Positions 22,626 to 62,898 of a stretch of DNA of 64,000 nt are shown piece by piece (positions within the stretch are counted from its first letter, which is position 1; every line of letters starts with the position of its first letter). The position numbers were made by a program, and so were the translations under genes. The notes beneath the pieces were generated by a model. The model made no database searches, was not told the origin of the DNA, and saw nothing but the letters and a program-made list of their open reading frames with translations. The DNA comes from a virus (Duplodnaviria; Caudoviricetes), in the IMG/VR virus record IMGVR_UViG_3300043252_000011, positions 34,429 through 98,428 of that record; one strand, written 5' to 3'.

Positions 22626-23025
22626 CATGCTTATCCGGTTGCCACACACAAACGCTTGAGAGGTACTAGATGTTGATCGAACGCCGAGGCTTGTTGACCG
22701 GGATCGTCGCAACTCTTTGCGCGCCTTCAATTGTGCGCGCGGGATCATTGATGCGGATCGCTGGCGAGCGGTATCGAATTTGGGGGTTTTCGTGTCCTTT
22801 GCTGCCGCCAGCGGAGGCGGCCTACAACAATCCGGCTTTATGGGACAAATATCTCGGGCCAACTCGCCGCCTTCAATTCGGAACATGGACGTTTTTCGGC
22901 AAAACCGGGAACGTCTATACCGACGACGTGATTGACTTTGCGAAGCAGGAATATCCGGATGCGCTCCCGTGGCCTGCGCATCAGGCACAAGATGTAGGGC
23001 TGTGTGTCTAAACCGGATAAGCATG
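22626..23025 (+). mobile_element. Non-autonomous TIR cassette 1 (IS1595/ISSod11-like ends), 400 bp
   Basis: TIR catgcttatccggtt; 8-bp TSD tgctatat (22618-25 and 23026-33). Confidence 0.88.
22670..23011 (+). CDS. Cassette 1 cargo with twin-arginine-like N-terminus
   Basis: MLIERRGLLTGIVATLCAPSIVRA; start and stop lie in the element ends. Confidence 0.65.
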   Translation: MLIERRGLLTGIVATLCAPSIVRAGSLMRIAGERYRIWGFSCPLLPPAEAAYNNPALWDKYLGPTRRLQFGTWTFFGKTGNVYTDDVIDFAKQEYPDALPWPAHQAQDVGLCV

Positions 23026-52589: not shown

Positions 52590-52842
52590 GGGAGGCCCAA
52601 CCTTAATCCCCGCAGCCATGGCGGTTCGGCCGCAGAGGCCCAAGCCGCCGCGGCAACCGACCACCGGAATGCGCCTCCAATGACGCCCTGGCCTGCGCGC
52701 TCGTCATCCCGCGCCGAGCCGCCTCAACCTCGTCCGCAGCACACCGTTCCAGCATTTCCCGCTGCGCCTGCGATTTGACCTCGATAAGCTTCATCGCACC
52801 CGCTCCCAAATGTTTTGCAGCCACAATATTTTTGCGCCGCAA

Positions 52843-52858
52843 CATTTCACGTGAAACA
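52843..52858. promoter_or_regulatory. parS: parS-like palindrome (14/16)
   Basis: catttcacgtgaaaca versus consensus TGTTTCACGTGAAACA. Confidence 0.65.
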
Positions 52859-52931
52859 TTAGGGAATTATATACTTGACTCCATTTCCGATTTGGGCTAG
52901 TTTTCGGGCATGAATTGAGGGAAAAACGGCC

Positions 52932-53861
52932 ATGTCCAAGTCCACCATTTCGACGTTTGAACTGTTCGCCCTGATCCCCGATGCGGAGACGGCGCGGACC
53001 TATTTGGAGGCCCGCCTGTGGCCGAACGGGGCAACCTGCCCGGTCTGCGGCCTTGGCGAGCGGGTGACGGTTCGGAAGGGCAAGCCCGGCTTCTACCACT
53101 GCCAACAGTGCGCAGAGGACTTTACGGTGCGCACCGGCACGATATTCGAGCGCAGCCATGTCCCGCTGCACAAGTGGGTTTACGCGATGTACCTGCTCGT
53201 AACGGCCCGCAAGGGCATATCCAGCCTGCAACTCGCCAAGGAAATCGGCGTCACCCAAAAGTCGGCTTGGTTCATGTTGCAGCGGCTCCGCGAAGCCTGC
53301 GGAAAAGACCTGACTATGCTTCAAGGGCTGGTCGAGGTTGATGAAACCTACGTGGGCGGCTTGGAGGCCAACAAGCACGAAGCCGACAAACTGCGCATGG
53401 GGCGCGGCCCGGTCGGCAAGCAGCCCGTTTTGGGCTTGCGGGAAAAGGGCAAAGGTGGTCGCGTCAAGGCGTTCAAGATCGACAGTACCGACGCGGGCAC
53501 GATCACCGATGTCATCGTTCAAAACGTGGCGGTCGGATCGACCCTGCACACTGACGAAGCCCAAGCCTACGGCGAGATCGGCGGCCTGTTCTTCGATCAT
53601 GCGACGGTCAACCACTCGGCTGGCGAATACGTCAAGGACGGCGTTTCGACCAATTCGATTGAGTCCGTTTTCGCGGTTTTGAAGCGCGGCCTGATCGGCG
53701 TCTACCATCACGCCAGCCCCAAGCATATCGGCCGCTACGTTGACGAATTTGCGTTCCGGTTGAACGAGGGCAACGTGGCCCGGCACACCCTGGAACGGCT
53801 GGACTCGTTCGTCAGTCGCGTTGCGGGCAAGCGGCTCACCTATAAGGCGCTGATCGCATGA
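52932..53861 (+). CDS. tnp: IS1595-family (ISXO2-like) DDE transposase
   Basis: CPVC Zn ribbon, VEVDETYVGG, LHTDE, TNSIES, YVDEFAFRLN. Confidence 0.95.
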   Translation: MSKSTISTFELFALIPDAETARTYLEARLWPNGATCPVCGLGERVTVRKGKPGFYHCQQCAEDFTVRTGTIFERSHVPLHKWVYAMYLLVTARKGISSLQLAKEIGVTQKSAWFMLQRLREACGKDLTMLQGLVEVDETYVGGLEANKHEADKLRMGRGPVGKQPVLGLREKGKGGRVKAFKIDSTDAGTITDVIVQNVAVGSTLHTDEAQAYGEIGGLFFDHATVNHSAGEYVKDGVSTNSIESVFAVLKRGLIGVYHHASPKHIGRYVDEFAFRLNEGNVARHTLERLDSFVSRVAGKRLTYKALIA

Positions 53862-53989
53862 GCGCGCCAGCGAAGCCCCCAGCGGCGTTAGACGCGATTG
53901 CGGACAAGGTTCTCCGCTACCGTCCCAAGCCCAAAACGAAACCAGCGAAAAGGCGCAAACGCCGTGCCCGCCTATTACAACGAGATTGA
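53858..53989 (+). CDS. Small basic ORF after the transposase
   Basis: Hand-translated 43 aa: MSAPAKPPAALDAIADKVLRYRPKPK... Confidence 0.5.
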   Translation: MSAPAKPPAALDAIADKVLRYRPKPKTKPAKRRKRRARLLQRD

Positions 53990-54836
53990 CCCCCATGCCG
54001 CACAGTGGCTCCGCAATCTTATCTCCGCTGGTCACATTGCAGCGGGGGACGTTGACGAGCGATCTATCGTTGACGTGCGGCCCGACGACCTTGGCGGATA
54101 CGAGCAAGCCCATTTCTTCGCCGGTATCGGCGGATGGTCCTACGCCTTGCGGCTCGCCGGATGGCCCGATGATCGATCGATCTGGACCGGCTCCTGTCCG
54201 TGTCAGCCGCTTTCGAGCGCGGGACAACGCAAGGGCCATGCCGACGAACGACACCTCTGGCCCGCTTTTTACCGCCTCATCGCCGAGTGCGCGCCTGCAA
54301 TCGTCTTTGGAGAACAGGTTGCGAGCAAGGATGGACGTGAATGGCTCGCCGGAGTTCGCGCTGACTTGGAAGCATTGGGATTTACCTGCGGGGCCGCCGA
54401 TCTGTGCGCTGCGGGCGTCGGCGCGCCCCATATCCGTCAACGGCTCTATTGGGGTGCCGACGCCGGTAGTACCGAACGGTGGTCGCCGGCCGAAGGGCGG
54501 GGCGATGTCGCTCAAAGGCCAGACGCCAGACGGCAAAAAACGACAGGTCGATCTGGATTTCTTTGTCCGCCGAGCCTTGGCACACCCGACGCCGATGCAC
54601 GGCGCACAGAACGAGGCGGCGCACAATGCGATGTCGGGCCAGTGGAAAACGGCCATTGGTCGGATGTCGAATGGGTCGCGGCTGGCGACGAAGGGCAGTT
54701 CCGCATTAAACCCGGCATATCCTTGCTGGCTCATGGGATTCCCGGACGTGTGGGACGGATTCGCGGGTACGGCAACGCGATTGTCCCGCAAGTCGCGTCC
54801 GAGTTCGTGAGCGCCTTCATGGAAAGTCGCCCTTGA
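53964..54836 (+). CDS. C5 cytosine methyltransferase (IS passenger, alpha frame)
   Basis: FFAGIGG, GSCPCQP, EQV, RIRGYGNAIVPQ. Confidence 0.85.
   Translation: MPAYYNEIDPHAAQWLRNLISAGHIAAGDVDERSIVDVRPDDLGGYEQAHFFAGIGGWSYALRLAGWPDDRSIWTGSCPCQPLSSAGQRKGHADERHLWPAFYRLIAECAPAIVFGEQVASKDGREWLAGVRADLEALGFTCGAADLCAAGVGAPHIRQRLYWGADAGSTERWSPAEGRGDVAQRPDARRQKTTGRSGFLCPPSLGTPDADARRTERGGAQCDVGPVENGHWSDVEWVAAGDEGQFRIKPGISLLAHGIPGRVGRIRGYGNAIVPQVASEFVSAFMESRP
53986..54810 (+). CDS. Overlapping alternative-frame MTase beta subunit
   Basis: LNPAYPCWLMGFP motif; homologous to 15969-16835. Confidence 0.55.
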   Translation: MTPMPHSGSAILSPLVTLQRGTLTSDLSLTCGPTTLADTSKPISSPVSADGPTPCGSPDGPMIDRSGPAPVRVSRFRARDNARAMPTNDTSGPLFTASSPSARLQSSLENRLRARMDVNGSPEFALTWKHWDLPAGPPICALRASARPISVNGSIGVPTPVVPNGGRRPKGGAMSLKGQTPDGKKRQVDLDFFVRRALAHPTPMHGAQNEAAHNAMSGQWKTAIGRMSNGSRLATKGSSALNPAYPCWLMGFPDVWDGFAGTATRLSRKSRPSS

Positions 54837-54956
54837 AATGAGCGAATGGACTCATGTATATAATTCCCAAACATTATAAGCCAGTCACAACTGCTCCACC
54901 CCGCCAAGTGATTGTAGCAGAAAATCTGTGTGCGGCAATTAGGAGCCGACGCAAAC

Positions 54957-55469
54957 TCACGGTTTTTCCCCCCGGTCGCCGCCAGCGAGCTCGACCGGGA
55001 CGGTCGCGTCATGCTCTATCATGGGCGTTGTGACAGGCTGTCGCTCGACTGACTGTCCCGGCTGCACCACGTTGACGATGCGAATAGTCACGCCAGGCGT
55101 GGCGTTTGCTGCCGATCCGCGCTGCTGGGCCGCATCCTCGGTGACAAACCACATGGCCGCGTCGAGCGCCGGCTTGTTCTCGGCTGCGTCGCGGATTGTC
55201 TTGATGCGCTTGATACTTGCTGGCCCCTCGCTCGTTCGAAGTACCTGCATTTCACGTTTCAGGTATGCGACAACCGGTGGCTTGGCGAGCGCATAACGCA
55301 TTGCCTGGGAAGTTAATCCCACCTTTTGTGCTGCTTCATCGAATGGCAGTGCATCCCAGACCATGAGATCGACAGCGCGGCGGACTTTTGCAGTGAGGCC
55401 AGCGCGTTCGATGCGCGTGGTGGGCCGGTTGCTGATTGGCTTCTCGTTGAGGATTGCCGCGTCGGACAT
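54957..55469 (-). CDS. Putative terminase small subunit
   Basis: HTH (AAQKVGLT..KPPVVAYL), PGVTIRIV C-terminus, same strand as terL. Confidence 0.55.
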   Translation of the reverse strand: MSDAAILNEKPISNRPTTRIERAGLTAKVRRAVDLMVWDALPFDEAAQKVGLTSQAMRYALAKPPVVAYLKREMQVLRTSEGPASIKRIKTIRDAAENKPALDAAMWFVTEDAAQQRGSAANATPGVTIRIVNVVQPGQSVERQPVTTPMIEHDATVPVELAGGDRGEKP

Positions 55470-55710
55470 GCTGTTGGCTTCGCTGTCCTTGGCTATCGCC
55501 TGCGGACTGGTCCTCGTTCGGCTGATCGCCTCACTGCGGGTTGAAAAGAGGGCGGGCGCGATGCGTGACGCGCGATTGGATGCGTCATTTTTGGTTTATT
55601 CGGCAACGCACGGCGACAAAACCGCATGAAATATGGGCTTTTGTGCTGTGTGAAATAGGTCAGCATTGCTGCTTGATCTCGGCGAGGGTTATTTGCCATA
55701 TGCAAATTAT

Positions 55711-55995
55711 GGGAATTATATACTTGAGTCCCGAGGCGCCCAAATAGGAGGCAACAGTGAGCGAGCGAACGGTTTACCGGCACAAAAGGCGAGGCGCCAT
55801 CTACGAGGTCTTGCATGACAACGCATGCTTGGAGTGTTCCGCCGCGCCAGAGTTCGAAAAGATGTTCGATGAGGATCATTTCGTCGTTTATCGGAGCATT
55901 CACAGCGCGGCTGTCTACGTTCGGCCCTACCCGGAGTTTCACGATGGCCGTTTCGAAGCGATCCCCGATCCCAGGGACTCAAGTATATAATTCCC
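55711..55995 (+). mobile_element. Non-autonomous ISNwi-like cassette (MIC), 285 bp
   Basis: Perfect 22-bp TIR gggaattatatacttgagtccc; TSD caaattat. Confidence 0.92.
55757..55990 (+). CDS. DUF1653-like cargo protein
   Basis: YRHKRRGAIYEV...VVYRS...YVRP..EF.DGRF; stop lies inside the TIR. Confidence 0.7.
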   Translation: MSERTVYRHKRRGAIYEVLHDNACLECSAAPEFEKMFDEDHFVVYRSIHSAAVYVRPYPEFHDGRFEAIPDPRDSSI

Positions 55996-56385
55996 CAAAT
56001 TATGGTGCGCCCATGCCTAGACCCTGACGCGCGTCGTGTTGCGTTATCGTTGTTGGCGCGGGGTCTCGGCAGTCCTGGCGAGATTGCCGACTTGGCCGGC
56101 GTATCGCGGCAGGTTGTTGAGGGTTGGGCGCTGATTGCCGATATGGATTGGCGCCAGATCAAGCGCGCGAGATTGGCAAAGGCGTGGCGCAAGGAATGGG
56201 ATCGTGTCCGGCCGTAATTGGGCAAGAGCGCGCAAGTTGGCAGATGCTGAAAAGCCGCAAGAGGCTTGCGACATCGGCCTATTCAGCGATGACATGGATC
56301 AGGTCGAAATGTTCATGGAGCCCACAAACGACATGCCGTGACGCGGCTATGCCGCTTCCTTTGGCGGCACTGCGCCGGAACGGCA

Positions 56386-56859
56386 TCAGGCCGGCGAGAC
56401 GCCAATCTCGCCGGCCGCTTTACGTCTTGCTTTGCCGCTGGCAAGCCCGGCTTTCCGAGCATGTGTTCTCTTCCTTTTCACCAAATCCCAGCGCTTTTTA
56501 GCACCATTTCGGCCTATTTTCTGCATGTATCGACGGCTGAACTCGATTTTGATAGCGCCGCTATGCCGAACCTGGGAATTGTTGCGGCCGGCAAGCCGTG
56601 CTTCAACCGATGCGAATGCTTCCTCGCTGTGCTGCAGCACGCCTTCGACGCCTAAGCCGCCGAGATACCAGAGCAGCGATTTCATCCCCACGCGCCGTTG
56701 GCCGCGCGATGAGAATATCTTGGCGGAATATCCCTTCGGCGCGCCGGTGAGCTCGTCCAGCGCCTCAAACGAGATATTGCGCCGCTCCCGCCATGTATTG
56801 AGCGCCGCGCGCAGCCCGGCATAATCGTGCCAGGCGATCGGATCGGCATCGGCCGTCAA
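56386..56859 (-). CDS. HTH-like hypothetical protein
   Basis: RERRNISFEALDELTG..GYSAK. Confidence 0.5.
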   Translation of the reverse strand: MTADADPIAWHDYAGLRAALNTWRERRNISFEALDELTGAPKGYSAKIFSSRGQRRVGMKSLLWYLGGLGVEGVLQHSEEAFASVEARLAGRNNSQVRHSGAIKIEFSRRYMQKIGRNGAKKRWDLVKRKRTHARKAGLASGKARRKAAGEIGVSPA

Positions 56860-57182
56860 TGGAAATACCGCCGCGGCGGCGGATCGAACGTATCGTCACC
56901 GCGGCTCGAGAACACGCACGCCAGCCCGATTCCGCCCCAGACTGCGACCGCAAAGCCGACGATGTAATAAACCGCGCTCAATGCACTGTCTCCGATTTGA
57001 GCACATACCACGGGCTATAGCGAAAAACCTCGCGGGCCGCCTCGCGAATGCGCCGGTCCGGCTCGTGGCCGAACACGTAGCGCAGATATTTGAAGCACGC
57101 CGCCTCGTAGCGCGATTGGATGGTCTTGGGGCCAAGTGAGGACGATTTGCTGCCGTAGCTCATTGCCGCCTCTCTAATGTTT

Positions 57183-57572
57183 CATGCTTATCCGGTTTAG
57201 ACACACAGCCCTACATCTTGTGGTTATGTTTCGACGTTTGCACGCGGTTCATTAAATAATCTGCATGGATCATCTGGCCATTCCATGCGATCATGTAGGT
57301 TGCCGTGGCGGAAAGACTCATAGTCTTCCTCGCCAGAGCCTATAGAGCGGCGCAACATTTCCGTACATCGCAGGCAAACCACGGTCTTGAGATTACGAGT
57401 TATGGCCAGATGACCACACGCTAGCTCTACGATGCGTCGGGTCTGGTCTTTGCCGAGACGATCCCGATTAAAGCCAGTCGCTATAATGTCGGTTCGCACA
57501 ATTCGTTCGGGTGGTGTTTGGATCAACATCTAGTAGGTCTCAGCGTTTGTGTGTGGCAACCGGATAAGCATG
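57183..57572 (-). mobile_element. Non-autonomous TIR cassette 2 (ISSod11-like ends), 390 bp
   Basis: Same ends as cassette 1, inverted; TSD taatgttt (57175-82 and 57573-80). Confidence 0.88.
57224..57529 (-). CDS. Cassette 2 cargo, hypothetical (LACGH..CLRC)
   Basis: 101-aa ORF filling the element. Confidence 0.65.
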   Translation of the reverse strand: MLIQTPPERIVRTDIIATGFNRDRLGKDQTRRIVELACGHLAITRNLKTVVCLRCTEMLRRSIGSGEEDYESFRHGNLHDRMEWPDDPCRLFNEPRANVET

Positions 57573-57575
57573 TAA

Positions 57576-57591
57576 TGTTTCACGTGAAACA
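57576..57591. promoter_or_regulatory. parS: Perfect parS palindrome
   Basis: tgtttcacgtgaaaca, 16/16 consensus. Confidence 0.8.
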
Positions 57592-57592
57592 C

Positions 57593-58096
57593 TCACGGCA
57601 CCCAACCCTTCGCCCTCACAATCTCATCGAGGGAGGCAGATGGCGCAAGCGTTTTTTCTTGCTTTCTCGCTGGACCAGCGACCGTAGTTCTAGGCTCAGA
57701 CTCTAAGGAAGATTCTATAGGTGATTGTGATTGTGTGTGCATTTGCCGAGCAATTGCCGGGTACGCACCCGTGAATTTTCTGTTTGTTCGTTCCGCACCC
57801 TTGAAGCCAGCAACGGCGCGCTTAGTGCTGATATCATTGGCCTTTTTTAATTCTTCCTCGATGCGTTTATGCTTCCATCCAGGCTGAAACATTCCGGCAA
57901 TTGCCGAGCAATTGCTGCGCCACTGGTCACGGTTTAATCGCGAAATCCCGGCAATTGCCGCTTCGCTGTCCGGCAGCTTCCCGTGCTGCCAATAGTGCAT
58001 GATAAGCAAAAGGTAGGCGCCGTGCTGAGCTGCCGTCAAATGCTGGGTGTCGGCCAGGTAATCGCCAATATAGAGCGGCATCCAAGCGCGGCTCAT
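57593..58096 (-). CDS. YdaU/DUF1376 putative replication protein
   Basis: WMPLYIGDYLADTQHLT..HGAYLLLIMHYW. Confidence 0.85.
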   Translation of the reverse strand: MSRAWMPLYIGDYLADTQHLTAAQHGAYLLLIMHYWQHGKLPDSEAAIAGISRLNRDQWRSNCSAIAGMFQPGWKHKRIEEELKKANDISTKRAVAGFKGAERTNRKFTGAYPAIARQMHTQSQSPIESSLESEPRTTVAGPARKQEKTLAPSASLDEIVRAKGWVP

Positions 58097-58530
58097 TCGG
58101 CGGCCTTGTTCGATGCAATCCACTCCGCCTCGATTTCCCGCCACAAGGCACGATAATCACGTGTCGCCTGTTGCCGGATCGGGCCATTTTCGCCGTTGAT
58201 CTTGAGCCATCCTAGCTGTTGCAGCCGAAACCGCTTGGCCGGATCGATCGCATTGAGGATTTCGAGCTCGCGCGAGGGGGACCAGCGCCAGTCGGTCATG
58301 TCGCGGTTGCTCTTGCCGAGATTGCAGCGTCGACAAAGTACCTGAAGATTCGACCAGGCTAGCGAAAGCCGCGGAAAATGCGACCGCGGCTTGATATGGT
58401 CAACCTGTAGGGGATTATCCGCATCGCCGCGGAAGCCGCAGCATTGGCAATAGCCATTGGCAAGCTTCAACGCCTTGTAGCGAGCCTTGAGCCATTCCGG
58501 GCTGTCGTAGAACGGATCGCGGCGCTCCAT
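58093..58530 (-). CDS. HNH endonuclease
   Basis: CQCCG..LQVDHIKP..NLQVLCRRCNLGK. Confidence 0.85.
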   Translation of the reverse strand: MERRDPFYDSPEWLKARYKALKLANGYCQCCGFRGDADNPLQVDHIKPRSHFPRLSLAWSNLQVLCRRCNLGKSNRDMTDWRWSPSRELEILNAIDPAKRFRLQQLGWLKINGENGPIRQQATRDYRALWREIEAEWIASNKAAE

Positions 58531-59036
58531 TACGACTCCCCGCGCGCTCGATATGCCATCTGGCAATGAAACCGGCAATACGGCACTGCATCATCTTTTG
58601 CTGCACCGCAATACAGCATGTCGCGGCCGGGCTCGCCGAGCGGCCATCGGCATGTGGTCGAGGTCAGCCCAAAAATATCCACCGCGCTCGCTGGCGTAGG
58701 GATGGCCGGTAGATCGGTTAGGCCGGGAGGCTGTGAGACGCCCAGCGCATGAAAGGCCATTCCCTGACCTTCCTGGCGCGATTGGCGGGGCTTCCTAGGG
58801 GTATTGAGCGTAATCCGCACATTGCCGATGCCATGCCGCAATTGCCGGGTTTTCCTTTTCACGATGACCCGTTTCGGCAACCCAAGCCTGATGATCTTGG
58901 CGACGACCGCGTTGCGGGTAATGCCGTCGCCGAGCTCGCGGGCTATCTCGCCGCCCGACATGCCGTCGCTGTGGCATTGCCGCAACACTTGCACGCGGGT
59001 CTCGGTCCAGAATGTGCCGGCGCCGGCGGGCATCAT
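58530..59036 (-). CDS. gcrA: GcrA-family regulator homolog
   Basis: WTETRV..L..IARELG.GITRNAVVAK..RLGL; CRWPLG..YCG..PYC..H. Confidence 0.9.
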   Translation of the reverse strand: MMPAGAGTFWTETRVQVLRQCHSDGMSGGEIARELGDGITRNAVVAKIIRLGLPKRVIVKRKTRQLRHGIGNVRITLNTPRKPRQSRQEGQGMAFHALGVSQPPGLTDLPAIPTPASAVDIFGLTSTTCRWPLGEPGRDMLYCGAAKDDAVPYCRFHCQMAYRARGES

Positions 59037-59248
59037 TCCGCCGCCTGTTGTCGTTGTCGGTGGGCAAATTCAAAGGCCATGTCGGCCAGCACCCGCTCGA
59101 TCAGCTTAGGTGCCGACCCCTTCTTGGGCGGCCCATGGTTTTCCCAATCGGTGTAAGTCGATCGGTCGACGCCAAATCTTCGGGCAAACACATCCTGGGT
59201 TTCGGCCATACGGCGCCTTGCGCGCCAAAGAGTGGTTGCTGTGACCAT
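59033..59248 (-). CDS. Cro/XRE-like HTH regulator, probably leaderless
   Basis: TQDVFARRFGVDRSTYTDWE; -10 element ends just 6 nt upstream of the ATG. Confidence 0.7.
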   Translation of the reverse strand: MVTATTLWRARRRMAETQDVFARRFGVDRSTYTDWENHGPPKKGSAPKLIERVLADMAFEFAHRQRQQAAE

Positions 59249-59254
59249 GGTGGC

Positions 59255-59283
59255 AGCATAAATATTTTTTGGTGCGAAGTCAA
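59255..59283 (-). promoter_or_regulatory. sigma70-type promoter TTGACT-17-TATGCT
   Basis: In the divergent intergenic region before the HTH gene. Confidence 0.55.
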
Positions 59284-59608
59284 CATTGGCGCTTGCATTA
59301 TTTTGCGGATGTGGGAATATCACAAAATGAGCCACGAGAGCGACGGTAGTCCGATCTTGGCCATCATCATGCCTGCGCTGTGGGCGCTGGCGATCGGGAT
59401 TATCGCTTGGAGGCAATGGCATGGCCGGTAGCCTGCGCGACCAGCTTTGCGCCGCTCACACGCTGGCATGGCAGCAGCAGCGCCACGAGGACGAGATCGC
59501 TTTGCTCCGCGCTATCGCCAAGATCGACGGCAAGCCGCTGCGGCACCATCGTGATACGCGCGACGATTTTCAAAAGGATTACGACGAGGAACAAGAAGGG
59601 ACCTACCG

Positions 59609-60478
59609 ATGAACGTGCCAGCCATCAAAACCGCAACCGCGGTTGCCTCCCACCCATTCAGTGCCGACCAGATCGACCTTATCAAGCGCACCATCTGTAA
59701 AGGCTCGACCGACGACGAACTCCGGCTATTCCTATATCAGGCCGGCCGCACCGGGCTCGATCCGCTCGCTCGACAAATCTATTCGATCGAGCGGCGTGAA
59801 TACCGCGACGGCCAATGGGTCAAGGCGCGATCAATACAGACATCGATCGATGGTTTCCGCCTGATCGCCGAACGCAGTGGCAAGTACGCCGGCCAGGTCG
59901 GCCCGTATTGGTGCGGCGCCGACGGCCAATGGCAAGACGTATGGATCGCGCCGGAATCGCCGATCGCCGCCCGGGTTGGGGTGCTGCGCACCGATTTCAA
60001 GGAACCATGCTGGGGCGTGGCGCGCTTCGATGCCTACGCGCAAAAGACCAAGGACGGCGTTCCGACGCGCATGTGGAAAACCATGGGCGACGTTATGGTG
60101 GCGAAGTGCGCCGAAGCACTGGCGCTGCGCAAGGCATTTCCGCAAGAACTATCCGGTCTCTACACCGGCGATGAAATGATGCAGGCGGTCGAGGATTTCA
60201 CACCGCCAGCGCCGAAGAAAACAATCGCCGAAGATTTGAACGATGAAATTCCGTTCGGTGGCGACACGCCGAAGGCCGCTCCTGCTCAAAGCCCCCCCAG
60301 CCCTCAGGCAGGAGCGGCCAGTGCGCCCGTCGATGTGCTGGCGATGGCGCGTGAGGCCGCAAGCCACGGCTTCGATATGCTGAACACCTACTACAAAACG
60401 CTCGGCAAGAAGGATCAGAAAATTCTCAACGAGCATAAAGTTGAACTCGAAGCGCTGTTTCCGATCGATGCGGAATAG
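59609..60478 (+). CDS. bet: Phage recombination protein Bet/RecT
   Basis: GLDPLARQIY, IQTSIDGFRLIA, KCAEALALRKAFP. Confidence 0.9.
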   Translation: MNVPAIKTATAVASHPFSADQIDLIKRTICKGSTDDELRLFLYQAGRTGLDPLARQIYSIERREYRDGQWVKARSIQTSIDGFRLIAERSGKYAGQVGPYWCGADGQWQDVWIAPESPIAARVGVLRTDFKEPCWGVARFDAYAQKTKDGVPTRMWKTMGDVMVAKCAEALALRKAFPQELSGLYTGDEMMQAVEDFTPPAPKKTIAEDLNDEIPFGGDTPKAAPAQSPPSPQAGAASAPVDVLAMAREAASHGFDMLNTYYKTLGKKDQKILNEHKVELEALFPIDAE

Positions 60479-60506
60479 CCGCTCACGACAGGTTAGTGGG
60501 AAAACC

Positions 60507-61244
60507 ATGGCAGAAATATCGGGAATTTCTTGGACAGACGCTACGTTCAATCCGTGGATTGGATGCACGCGCGTAAGCCCCGCGTGTGATCGTTGCTATG
60601 CGGCCCGTGACAATGAACGCTGGAATTGGGTGCCCGGCTGGGGCGCAGGCGTCGCTAGGCGCCGCACGTCGGTCCAGAACTGGAACAAGGTGCTCAAATG
60701 GAATCGCGAAGCAGCGGCTTCGGGAAGGCCGCTACGGGTGTTCTGTGCGTCGCTCGCCGACGTGTTTGATAACGAGATCGAGCAGGCGTGGCGCAACGAC
60801 CTGTGGGACTTGCTTCGCGCTACGCCAAATCTGCGGTGGATACTTCTGACCAAGCGGATAGGCAACGCGCCGAAGATGCTACCCGCGTTCTGGCCCATGG
60901 CGCACGTCGGCTTGATGTCCACCCTCGAAAATCAAGAGGTATGGGACCGGGATTATCACAAGCTCGAAGCCGTGCCGGCGGCTTGGCATGGGGTGTCCGC
61001 CGAACCGTTGCTCAGCCATATCGATATCGGCGACGCTAAGCCGGATTGGATCATCACGGGCGGTGAAAGCGGCCCCGGCTTCCGGCCCCTCGATATGGAT
61101 GCCGTGCGCTCGCTTCGCGATCAATGCCGACGCAACGGCATCACTTTCCACCACAAGCAAAACGGCGGTATTCGCGGGAAGGATGCCGGCTGTTTGGTCG
61201 ATGGTGTCGAGCATAAATATTTTCCGCCAGCGTTGGCGGCTTAG
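60507..61244 (+). CDS. Phage Gp37/Gp68 (DUF5131) family protein
   Basis: ISWTDATFNPWIGCTRVSPACDRCYA, LLTKR, SAEPLL, GGESG. Confidence 0.9.
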   Translation: MAEISGISWTDATFNPWIGCTRVSPACDRCYAARDNERWNWVPGWGAGVARRRTSVQNWNKVLKWNREAAASGRPLRVFCASLADVFDNEIEQAWRNDLWDLLRATPNLRWILLTKRIGNAPKMLPAFWPMAHVGLMSTLENQEVWDRDYHKLEAVPAAWHGVSAEPLLSHIDIGDAKPDWIITGGESGPGFRPLDMDAVRSLRDQCRRNGITFHHKQNGGIRGKDAGCLVDGVEHKYFPPALAA

Positions 61245-61289
61245 GCACTATCAACAAGTATGTCGCCAACTTAGAGGTAGGAGAACACC

Positions 61290-61712
61290 GTGAACAAGCG
61301 CAGACTTCTGAGGTTGGCCGATCTGCTCGACGCAGACGCCAAGAACGAGGCGGGTGTCAAATTTAATCTGAGCGGGTGGGGTAGTTCGTCTACAGGCGCC
61401 CCGGCTAATGTTTCCTGCGGCACCACGGCATGTGCGATGGGGCTGGCGGTACTAAGTGGCGCGTTCGAACAAGACGGCCTCAGAAACGGATTTGGGCCGC
61501 GCTCATGCTCGGTCATTCCTTATTTTCAAACAGGGCAGAAAGTTGTGTCAGGCTTCAAGGCCGCGGCGAATCTGTTTGGCATTAGCCACAAGGCAGCCGA
61601 ATGGCTCTTTCAAGATGACCACTACCGCAAAAGCCAATGGACTGGTGCCGCAGGCGAACGCGCCGTGGCCCGCCGTATTCGCAAGTTCGTTGCTGGCGAA
61701 GCGCGACCGTAA
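61290..61712 (+). CDS. Conserved hypothetical phage protein
   Basis: RLLRLADLL...CGTTACAMG...VARRIRKF. Confidence 0.7.
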   Translation: MNKRRLLRLADLLDADAKNEAGVKFNLSGWGSSSTGAPANVSCGTTACAMGLAVLSGAFEQDGLRNGFGPRSCSVIPYFQTGQKVVSGFKAAANLFGISHKAAEWLFQDDHYRKSQWTGAAGERAVARRIRKFVAGEARP

Positions 61713-61731
61713 GACGGCGGCTGATACGGAA

Positions 61732-62175
61732 CATGCTTATCCGGTTGCCACACACAAACGCTGAGACCTACTAGATGTTGAAAACCCTCGTTTGGCCTGA
61801 GAAAAGCTATCAGTCGCTCGACCAAGGCATCCGATTTGCAGTGCGCGTTCTTCACGCGGCCGGGTTTGAAACCTGCCAGTCATGCCAGGGCGGTAAAGGG
61901 CACGCCTACAGCGACCCTACGGTTGATCTGAGAGCGGAAGCTGACGACGCCCGTGGTTTTGGAGCGCTCGCGGCGCTGCGAACCTACGGGCTTCCCATCG
62001 CGGAGGTAGCCATCGTTTGGCCTGTGCGGAACGGCTGCCCCTACGAGAAACTTTGGCGCATCACATTCAGCAAAACAATGGAAGATCGCGCCGATGAGAA
62101 GCCGAGTTTTGTTTTCGGGTATGCCGCAACATGACCGCAAGATATGGGGCTGTGTGTCTAAACCGGATAAGCATG
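61732..62175 (+). mobile_element. Non-autonomous TIR cassette 3 (ISSod11-like ends), 444 bp, no TSD
   Basis: Same ends as cassettes 1 and 2; flanks atacggaa and gttagcag differ. Confidence 0.85.
61775..62134 (+). CDS. Cassette 3 cargo, hypothetical (LDQGI..ETCQSCQGG)
   Basis: 119-aa ORF filling the element. Confidence 0.65.
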   Translation: MLKTLVWPEKSYQSLDQGIRFAVRVLHAAGFETCQSCQGGKGHAYSDPTVDLRAEADDARGFGALAALRTYGLPIAEVAIVWPVRNGCPYEKLWRITFSKTMEDRADEKPSFVFGYAAT

Positions 62176-62193
62176 GTTAGCAGGGAGATTAAA

Positions 62194-62898
62194 ATGGGTT
62201 GCGATATTCACCTTTACGTCGAGCATCGAAATGGCCAAGGTTGGGAAAGCTGCGACGTATGGGAGAAAAGCGAATACGAGCCGCACGAATTGACTGTGCC
62301 ATACGGCAAGCATTTTTATAGCGACCGCTCCTATGATACCTTTGCAATCTTGGCAGATGTGCGCAACGGCTATGGCTTTGCGGGGACCGATACCGGAGAC
62401 GGTTTTGTTCCGATTGCCGAGCCTCGCGGCTTACCCGACGATATGTCCCCACAACTCGCGGCAGAAGCCGCCGCGTTTTTGGAGCACACCCCATCGTGGC
62501 TAACAGCCAAAGAATTGATGGAGTATGACTGGACTCGCACCACAACAAAACGCGGATGGATCAGCGGCCCGCAATACGCCCATTGGATCAGATACCAGCG
62601 CGAGGATGGCGATGGGCCGAGAGAATGGTGCGGCGGAATCGGCGGCGGCGGTATTGAGCATATCGCGGAAGCGGAAATGGCGGAGCGCGTTGCCGCCGTT
62701 CAAGAACTGTTCAAGGGAGCAAACTACAAAGACTTGGAGCAGGCGTTGAAGGATCGGCTTGGCTCGACGTACTGCCAAGTATCCTGGCAAATTCCTTACT
62801 ATCGAGCGGCGTCCGGTTTTCTTAGCCGCGTCATGCCTCGCTTGTGGCGCTTGGGAAAGCCGGACGATGTGCGGATTGTCTTTTGGTTCGACAGCTAG
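62194..62898 (+). CDS. Conserved hypothetical phage protein (MGCDIH family)
   Basis: MGCDIH...RSY..F..LADVRN...PRGLP...RIVFWFD. Confidence 0.75.
   Translation: MGCDIHLYVEHRNGQGWESCDVWEKSEYEPHELTVPYGKHFYSDRSYDTFAILADVRNGYGFAGTDTGDGFVPIAEPRGLPDDMSPQLAAEAAAFLEHTPSWLTAKELMEYDWTRTTTKRGWISGPQYAHWIRYQREDGDGPREWCGGIGGGGIEHIAEAEMAERVAAVQELFKGANYKDLEQALKDRLGSTYCQVSWQIPYYRAASGFLSRVMPRLWRLGKPDDVRIVFWFDS

Follow-up and report, generated by a model that had tools for sequence, protein, structure and literature searches.

Can transposable elements be guided to a centromere-like site by the protein bound there? The question is raised by the last 64 kb (the window, whose coordinates are used throughout) of a 98,428-bp tailed-phage record in IMG/VR, IMGVR_UViG_3300043252_000011, where two elements with unrelated terminal inverted repeats (TIRs), an insertion sequence (IS) and a short cassette, each abut a palindrome resembling parS, the site recognised by the partition protein ParB. 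A sequence-only reading had proposed that IS1595-family insertion may be guided to parS/ParB complexes, with the alternative that an AT-rich 8-mer is simply a preferred target. If homing of IS1595 elements to ParB–parS were true, it would constitute a new class of protein-guided target choice touching chromosome segregation, and a bias towards ParB or the palindrome would turn phage centromere-like sites into landing pads for cargo cassettes. The evidence favours a known trait of the family instead, namely insertion at AT-rich 8-bp targets, with which the edge of parS happens to agree; this ordinary preference plus coincidence probably explains both insertions.

The first element is a 2,007-bp IS with a passenger gene on the plus strand (52862–54868). 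Its TIRs, GGGAATTATATACTTGA and GGGAATTATATACATGA (that is, GGGAATTATATAC(T/A)TGA), match at 16 of 17 positions, and perfect 8-bp repeats of AAACATTA flank it at 52854–52861 and 54869–54876, in keeping with the TIRs and 8-bp target-site duplications (TSDs) of the IS1595 family. The left TSD copy overlaps a parS-like palindrome, CATTTCACGTGAAACA (52843–52858), which agrees with the consensus at 14 of 16 positions and lies ~50 bp upstream of a small leftward gene. The second element, cassette 2, is a 390-bp insertion on the minus strand (57183–57572) with the TIR CATGCTTATCCGGTT and the TSD TAATGTTT at 57175–57182 and 57573–57580; here the right repeat overlaps a perfect parS, TGTTTCACGTGAAACA (57576–57591, 16/16). 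This second site lies 2 nt past the stop codon of a DUF1376, or 'primosomal protein'-like, phage replication gene (57593–58144, minus strand) that adjoins it, and upstream of the ribosome-binding site (RBS) of a 61-aa gene. Judged by the 16-bp palindrome tGTTtCAcGTGAAACa, both sites qualify as putative parS. Both are intergenic, the second lying within the 40 bp that separate the DUF1376 stop codon from the next RBS. The 98,428-bp record holds no other parS-like site at up to three mismatches, and a shuffled 64-kb window would be expected to hold 0.03 at up to two.

The two overlaps and the likeness of the targets had been noticed in the sequence-only reading and are borne out. The targets have exactly 17 nt in common, TTTCACGTGAAACATTA, in inverted orientation, with differing sequence outside the 17-mer, and the IS and cassette 2 sit at an identical register, each on the inward-facing edge of its parS, with the parS core left intact in both cases. 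The possibility that parS forms part of either element was considered and rejected, because the palindrome lies outside the TIRs and is missing from the second TSD copy.

The TIRs of the two elements are indeed unrelated in sequence. However, the view that the elements themselves are of different kinds did not survive. The IS encodes a 309-aa transposase (52932–53861, plus strand) that combines an N-terminal zinc ribbon (PF12760 Zn_ribbon_IS1595, E 4e-8) with an ISXO2-like DDE domain (PF12762 DDE_Tnp_IS1595, E 3e-43), as is expected of the IS1595 family. Five elements of 1.7–2.0 kb bounded by the CATGCTTATCCGGTT TIR encode proteins of 346–350 aa with the same two domains, and the transposase of the one that was aligned is 26% identical to that of the window. 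Because IS1595-type transposases are thus encoded by the autonomous elements of the CATGCTTATCCGGTT TIR as well, the IS and cassette 2 are not independent kinds of element; they are two lineages of one family, IS1595, and the small elements are mobile insertion cassettes (MICs). In all, the phage carries five IS1595-family insertions, namely one autonomous IS, one cassette with the same ends and three cassettes of the second lineage; all four cassettes encode only open reading frames (ORFs) of 77–119 aa and no transposase, as is expected of non-autonomous IS1595 cassettes. Both TIR types are abundant in viral contigs, with at least 118 stretches each, and a perfect 8-bp TSD flanks 19 of 27 paired copies of the IS type and 35 of 43 of the cassette type.

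The target preference of both lineages could be measured from unique end flanks in other viral contigs, 142 of the IS type and 156 of the cassette type among the matches listed, from which logos and weight matrices were built; the matrices treat positions as independent. The duplicated 8-mer is 78% AT in the IS type and 64% in the cassette type, compared with ~44% in the flanks, and the logo in both lineages is NWWNNWWN, with W favoured at positions 2, 3, 6 and 7; the stricter pattern HWWNNWWD fits 65% of IS-type targets. The target of the IS, AAACATTA, fits the logo exactly, with A-AA-CA taken from parS and TT-A from the flank. No other register over or beside parS fits as well, and with matrices trained on other contigs only, the observed register obtained the top score at each parS site for both lineages. 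In the phage with its insertions removed, AAACATTA ranked 74 of 95,295 positions by the IS-type matrix. Further, at 246 perfect-parS edges in other viral loci (those that the search pattern left unconstrained), the same register reached a median percentile of 98.6 by this matrix and fell in the top 1% in 43% of cases; the parS sites of these loci typically lie in AT-rich flanks. Because parS supplies AAACA and an AT-rich flank supplies WWD, the outer edge of parS is a ready-made good target, and parS edges are, as judged from sequence, intrinsically good targets for IS1595 elements. Duplication of AT-rich 8-bp targets has been shown experimentally for ISEc69/Tn7052, another member of the family (PMC7835479). 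The alternative offered in the sequence-only reading, an AT-rich 8-mer as preferred target, therefore holds for both lineages, with the parS edge as the best-scoring register for each.

A survey of IS1595 and MIC insertion sites for proximity to parS, which the sequence-only reading had named as the check on guided insertion, gave no enrichment. Not one of the 298 unique flanks used for the logos (both lineages, other viral contigs, same matches) lies at parS, and when all 2.9 million contigs of IMG/VR were scanned for either TIR with a parS core no more than 12 bp away, none turned up outside this record. The junction scans of the genome and metagenome collections covered IS-type ends. Among 241 million metagenome records, 36 stretches carried an IS-type end with an AAACAWWD TSD, and none of the 36 had CACGTG upstream. 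A search that made no assumption about the TIR, run over 552 edges of 276 parS-like sites (up to two mismatches, from sampled loci plus the phage's own record), recovered a TIR-bounded element with an 8-bp TSD at two edges, both in this phage, and at 0 of 550 elsewhere. Recurrence of independent copies at parS above the sequence preference, by which site-guided transposition would be recognised, was thus not seen. The literature searches found no paper in which IS1595 or other transposons are connected with parS. One cassette-type end, in locus L204, adjoins TGTTTCACATGAAACG, a parS-like sequence with two mismatches whose first two bases derive from the TIR; the register is different, no second exact TIR match occurs in the 5.4-kb locus, and the case was treated as chance.

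Several observations nevertheless weigh against a purely ordinary origin. The site occupied by the cassette lineage is a middling target, ranking 2,591 of 95,295 by its own matrix. In a genome-wide model based on the weight matrices and restricted to intergenic DNA, as delimited by a crude self-trained gene caller whose calls are approximate, the probability that two IS-type and three cassette events would place at least one of each type at parS edges was ~1e-4. Confining the insertions to the intergenic DNA of the 7.7-kb early region, which contains four of the five elements, raised the probability of the double hit to ~5e-3. Finally, among 185,579 genomes, one IS-type end was found at the identical register at a perfect, origin-proximal parS beside mnmE in a metagenome-assembled genome (MAG) of Spirochaetia (L400, contig C114:14000–27500; TSD AAACATTT). 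It should, however, be noted that this insertion is unconfirmed, because no second end or TSD occurs within 10 kb, and that the genome contains about ten IS-type ends and two perfect parS sites; a single such case could be within reach of sequence preference. Behind the TIR, the MAG encodes a 236-aa ORF with no Pfam match and a 1,074-aa Eco57I/MmeI-like restriction-modification enzyme, and the locus may represent either a large transposon with cargo or what is left of one.

These points are most naturally claimed by the explanation that ParB-bound parS, or the structure of the palindrome, attracts IS1595-family transposases and makes the parS edge a true hotspot, at least in this phage–host pair. 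Each of the two parS-like sites in the phage has an element at the same register on its inward edge, the transposases of the two lineages involved are only 26% identical, the chance estimates for the double hit are low (1e-4 to 5e-3), and the Spirochaetia end would add a further same-register case. However, the surveys of flanks, IMG/VR junctions, metagenome insertions and parS edges all came back without enrichment, the logo fully predicts the common register, and one match in 185,579 genomes, lacking a second end or TSD, is near chance. Further, a profile search detected no ParB_N protein (PF02195), and hence no cognate ParB, in the 98 kb of the record; because the phage encodes no such protein, any ParB bound at its parS sites would have to be derived from the host. 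Since the double hit was picked from a very large scan and is favoured by the target logo of the family, we infer that it is coincidental rather than ParB-dependent. The attraction of transposases to these sites is accordingly regarded as unlikely, although a small share of probability is kept for a local effect because the double hit stays improbable under the null models. The specific form in which, in some phage–host pairs, host ParB on phage parS, or a bent or extruded palindrome, steers IS1595-family transposases to the AT-rich edge is slightly more doubtful again.

About as improbable, and perhaps a shade more so, is the idea that the insertions were random and were retained by selection, in that cargo placed beside parS, or the separation of parS from neighbouring genes, benefits the phage. 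The 101-aa ORF of cassette 2 is co-directional with the operon that it entered, where it separates the DUF1376 stop codon from the RBS of the gene that follows, both parS cores are preserved, and ~9 kb of the early region holds four of the five elements, all of which would suit such retention. Nevertheless, no recurrent parS-edge cases were found in other phages, the profile searches assigned no function to the cargo ORFs, and the survival of intergenic insertions is already part of the ordinary target-preference explanation, so that no parS-specific benefit is needed. The sequence-only reading had also allowed that its two loci might derive from one duplication or inversion, leaving a single targeting event to be explained. 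The identical, inverted 17-mer is what such an origin would leave, but the identity does not extend beyond these 17 nt, of which 12 (TTTCACGTGAAA) belong to the self-complementary part of parS, and each element has different TIRs and an intact TSD of its own; because the flanks outside the 17-mer are unrelated on both sides, this origin is refuted and hardly any probability remains for it.

Ordinary target preference would account for the locus in the following way. The phage has acquired five IS1595-family insertions, including an autonomous IS with a DNA methyltransferase. The transposases of the family make staggered cuts 8 bp apart and favour AT-rich NWWNNWWN 8-mers, which are scarce and mostly intergenic in a phage with a GC content of 57%. 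At one fixed register, parS provides the first five target bases, AAACA, and the usual AT-rich flank adds WWD. Two independent insertions would then have taken this same register at both parS sites of the phage, within an early/regulatory region that tolerates insertions.

The record that hosts these elements has direct terminal repeats, by which it is circular, and is rated complete. It encodes a large terminase, a portal/adaptor-like protein, a major head protein, a serine recombinase, RecT, an HNH endonuclease and the DUF1376 'primosomal' protein. Four of the five insertions lie within ~9 kb (52800–62200). This stretch, the early/regulatory region, is bounded by the serine recombinase gene and the RecT module, and the clustering suggests that it is an insertion-tolerant zone. 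In curated plasmid and phage collections, no close relative of the IS or of the region was found, and the methyltransferase alone gave matches. Relatives of the DUF1376 protein are at best 55% identical, and their 80 loci contained no good parS and neither TIR; neither here nor in the curated collections did a close relative with empty sites come to light. This phage carries two parS sites without a ParB_N protein, and its distant DUF1376-module relatives have no parS sites. Host-type parS sites are common in viral contigs; the 17-mer TAATGTTTCACGTGAAA alone matches at least 117 stretches (loci L283–L399), with 2–5 copies in some contigs and with full 22-bp palindromes. Plasmids, or predicted prophages with host flanks, may be among these contigs. 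Partition, SMC loading and silencing are candidate uses of host ParB by such phages.

The passenger of the IS is a C5-cytosine DNA methyltransferase gene (53964–54836, plus strand), full length by profile (phrog_363, E 1e-80, residues 2–288 of 290). A methylase-like passenger is also present in an autonomous element of the other lineage (locus L138, 4799–5449), and IS1595 elements may deliver anti-restriction methylases to phages. The cassette with IS-type ends, MIC1 (285 bp, 55711–55995), lies 840 bp from the IS, with the TSD CAAATTAT at 55703–55710 and 55996–56003 and a 77-aa ORF. In cassette 2, the 101-aa ORF spans 57224–57529 on the minus strand. The second CATGCTTATCCGGTT-type cassette (22626–23025) has the TSD TGCTATAT, is not near parS and contains a different cargo, an ORF of 113 aa, and the third (61732–62175) contains yet another, of 119 aa. 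Within the window, an 8-bp TSD is thus present for MIC1 and for two of the three CATGCTTATCCGGTT-type cassettes. Unlike the other two copies, the third is bordered by ATACGGAA and GTTAGCAG with no duplication, and the missing TSD could result from recombination between copies in different genomes or from an adjacent deletion.

The three CATGCTTATCCGGTT-type cassettes of the phage have only ~40–50 bp in common at each end, and their ORFs (101–119 aa) are unrelated. For the cargo and neighbouring small proteins, searches of Pfam, PHROG and PDB sequences gave no useful match. One cassette end carries a conserved subterminal motif, ACACACAAACGCTGAG...TACTAGATGTTGA, which is present in many copies elsewhere; the longest cargo ORFs begin at an ATG within it, and the motif is a candidate start codon, promoter or transposase-binding site. 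In another viral locus (L008:11729–12205), a CATGCTTATCCGGTT-type cassette is nested in the AT-rich TIR of a GGGAATTATATAC-type element with the TSD ATGTATAT, the TIR of one lineage here being a good target for the other.

Collectively, the target logo of two abundant IS1595 lineages has been measured, and the small cassette is proven to be a member of the family. IS1595 cassettes are frequent in viral contigs, to which they bring small cargo genes and methyltransferases. Since parS edges are intrinsically good IS1595 targets, single co-occurrences of such elements with parS should not be over-read.

Transposons that home to protein-bound or palindromic sites are well known, and include the 'res hunters' Tn5053/Tn402, the IS1397-type elements that target REP sequences, and Tn7 with attTn7. 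The likeness of the present insertions to these systems, a constant spacing from a palindrome to which a protein of a partition or maintenance system binds, is superficial; the homing systems reach their own type of site in most independent copies, whereas here none of ~330 other insertions was at parS. A closer likeness is seen with the passenger-carrying insertion sequences of the IS1595 family, the ISNwi1-type 'transporter IS', which Siguier, Gagnevin and Chandler are said to have described in 2009 (cited through PMC12561309). As in these, the IS combines a zinc ribbon and a DDE_Tnp_IS1595 domain with short TIRs, an 8-bp TSD and a passenger located between the transposase gene and the right end. 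It differs in residing in a phage genome, and what would link it to the ISNwi1-type subgroup is the presence of a passenger gene. Mobile insertion cassettes are non-autonomous, TIR-bounded elements that are mobilised in trans, such as MIC231 of Bacillus cereus. MIC1 and the three CATGCTTATCCGGTT-type cassettes resemble them in that their ends are those of autonomous elements, they lack a transposase, their small cargo ORFs are unrelated and, except at 61732–62175, they are flanked by 8-bp TSDs; the difference is that the cassettes described here are of IS1595 lineages and occur abundantly in viral contigs (at least 118 stretches per TIR). Finally, ISEc69/Tn7052, of the IS1016 group, likewise generates 8-bp duplications at AT-rich targets (PMC7835479), a preference seen here across 298 natural sites; however, its transposase is much smaller (217 aa) and its TIR is another one, and the logo obtained here is periodic, NWWNNWWN. 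The elements at the two parS sites fall within the IS1595 family and its cassettes, and their behaviour is that known for the family.

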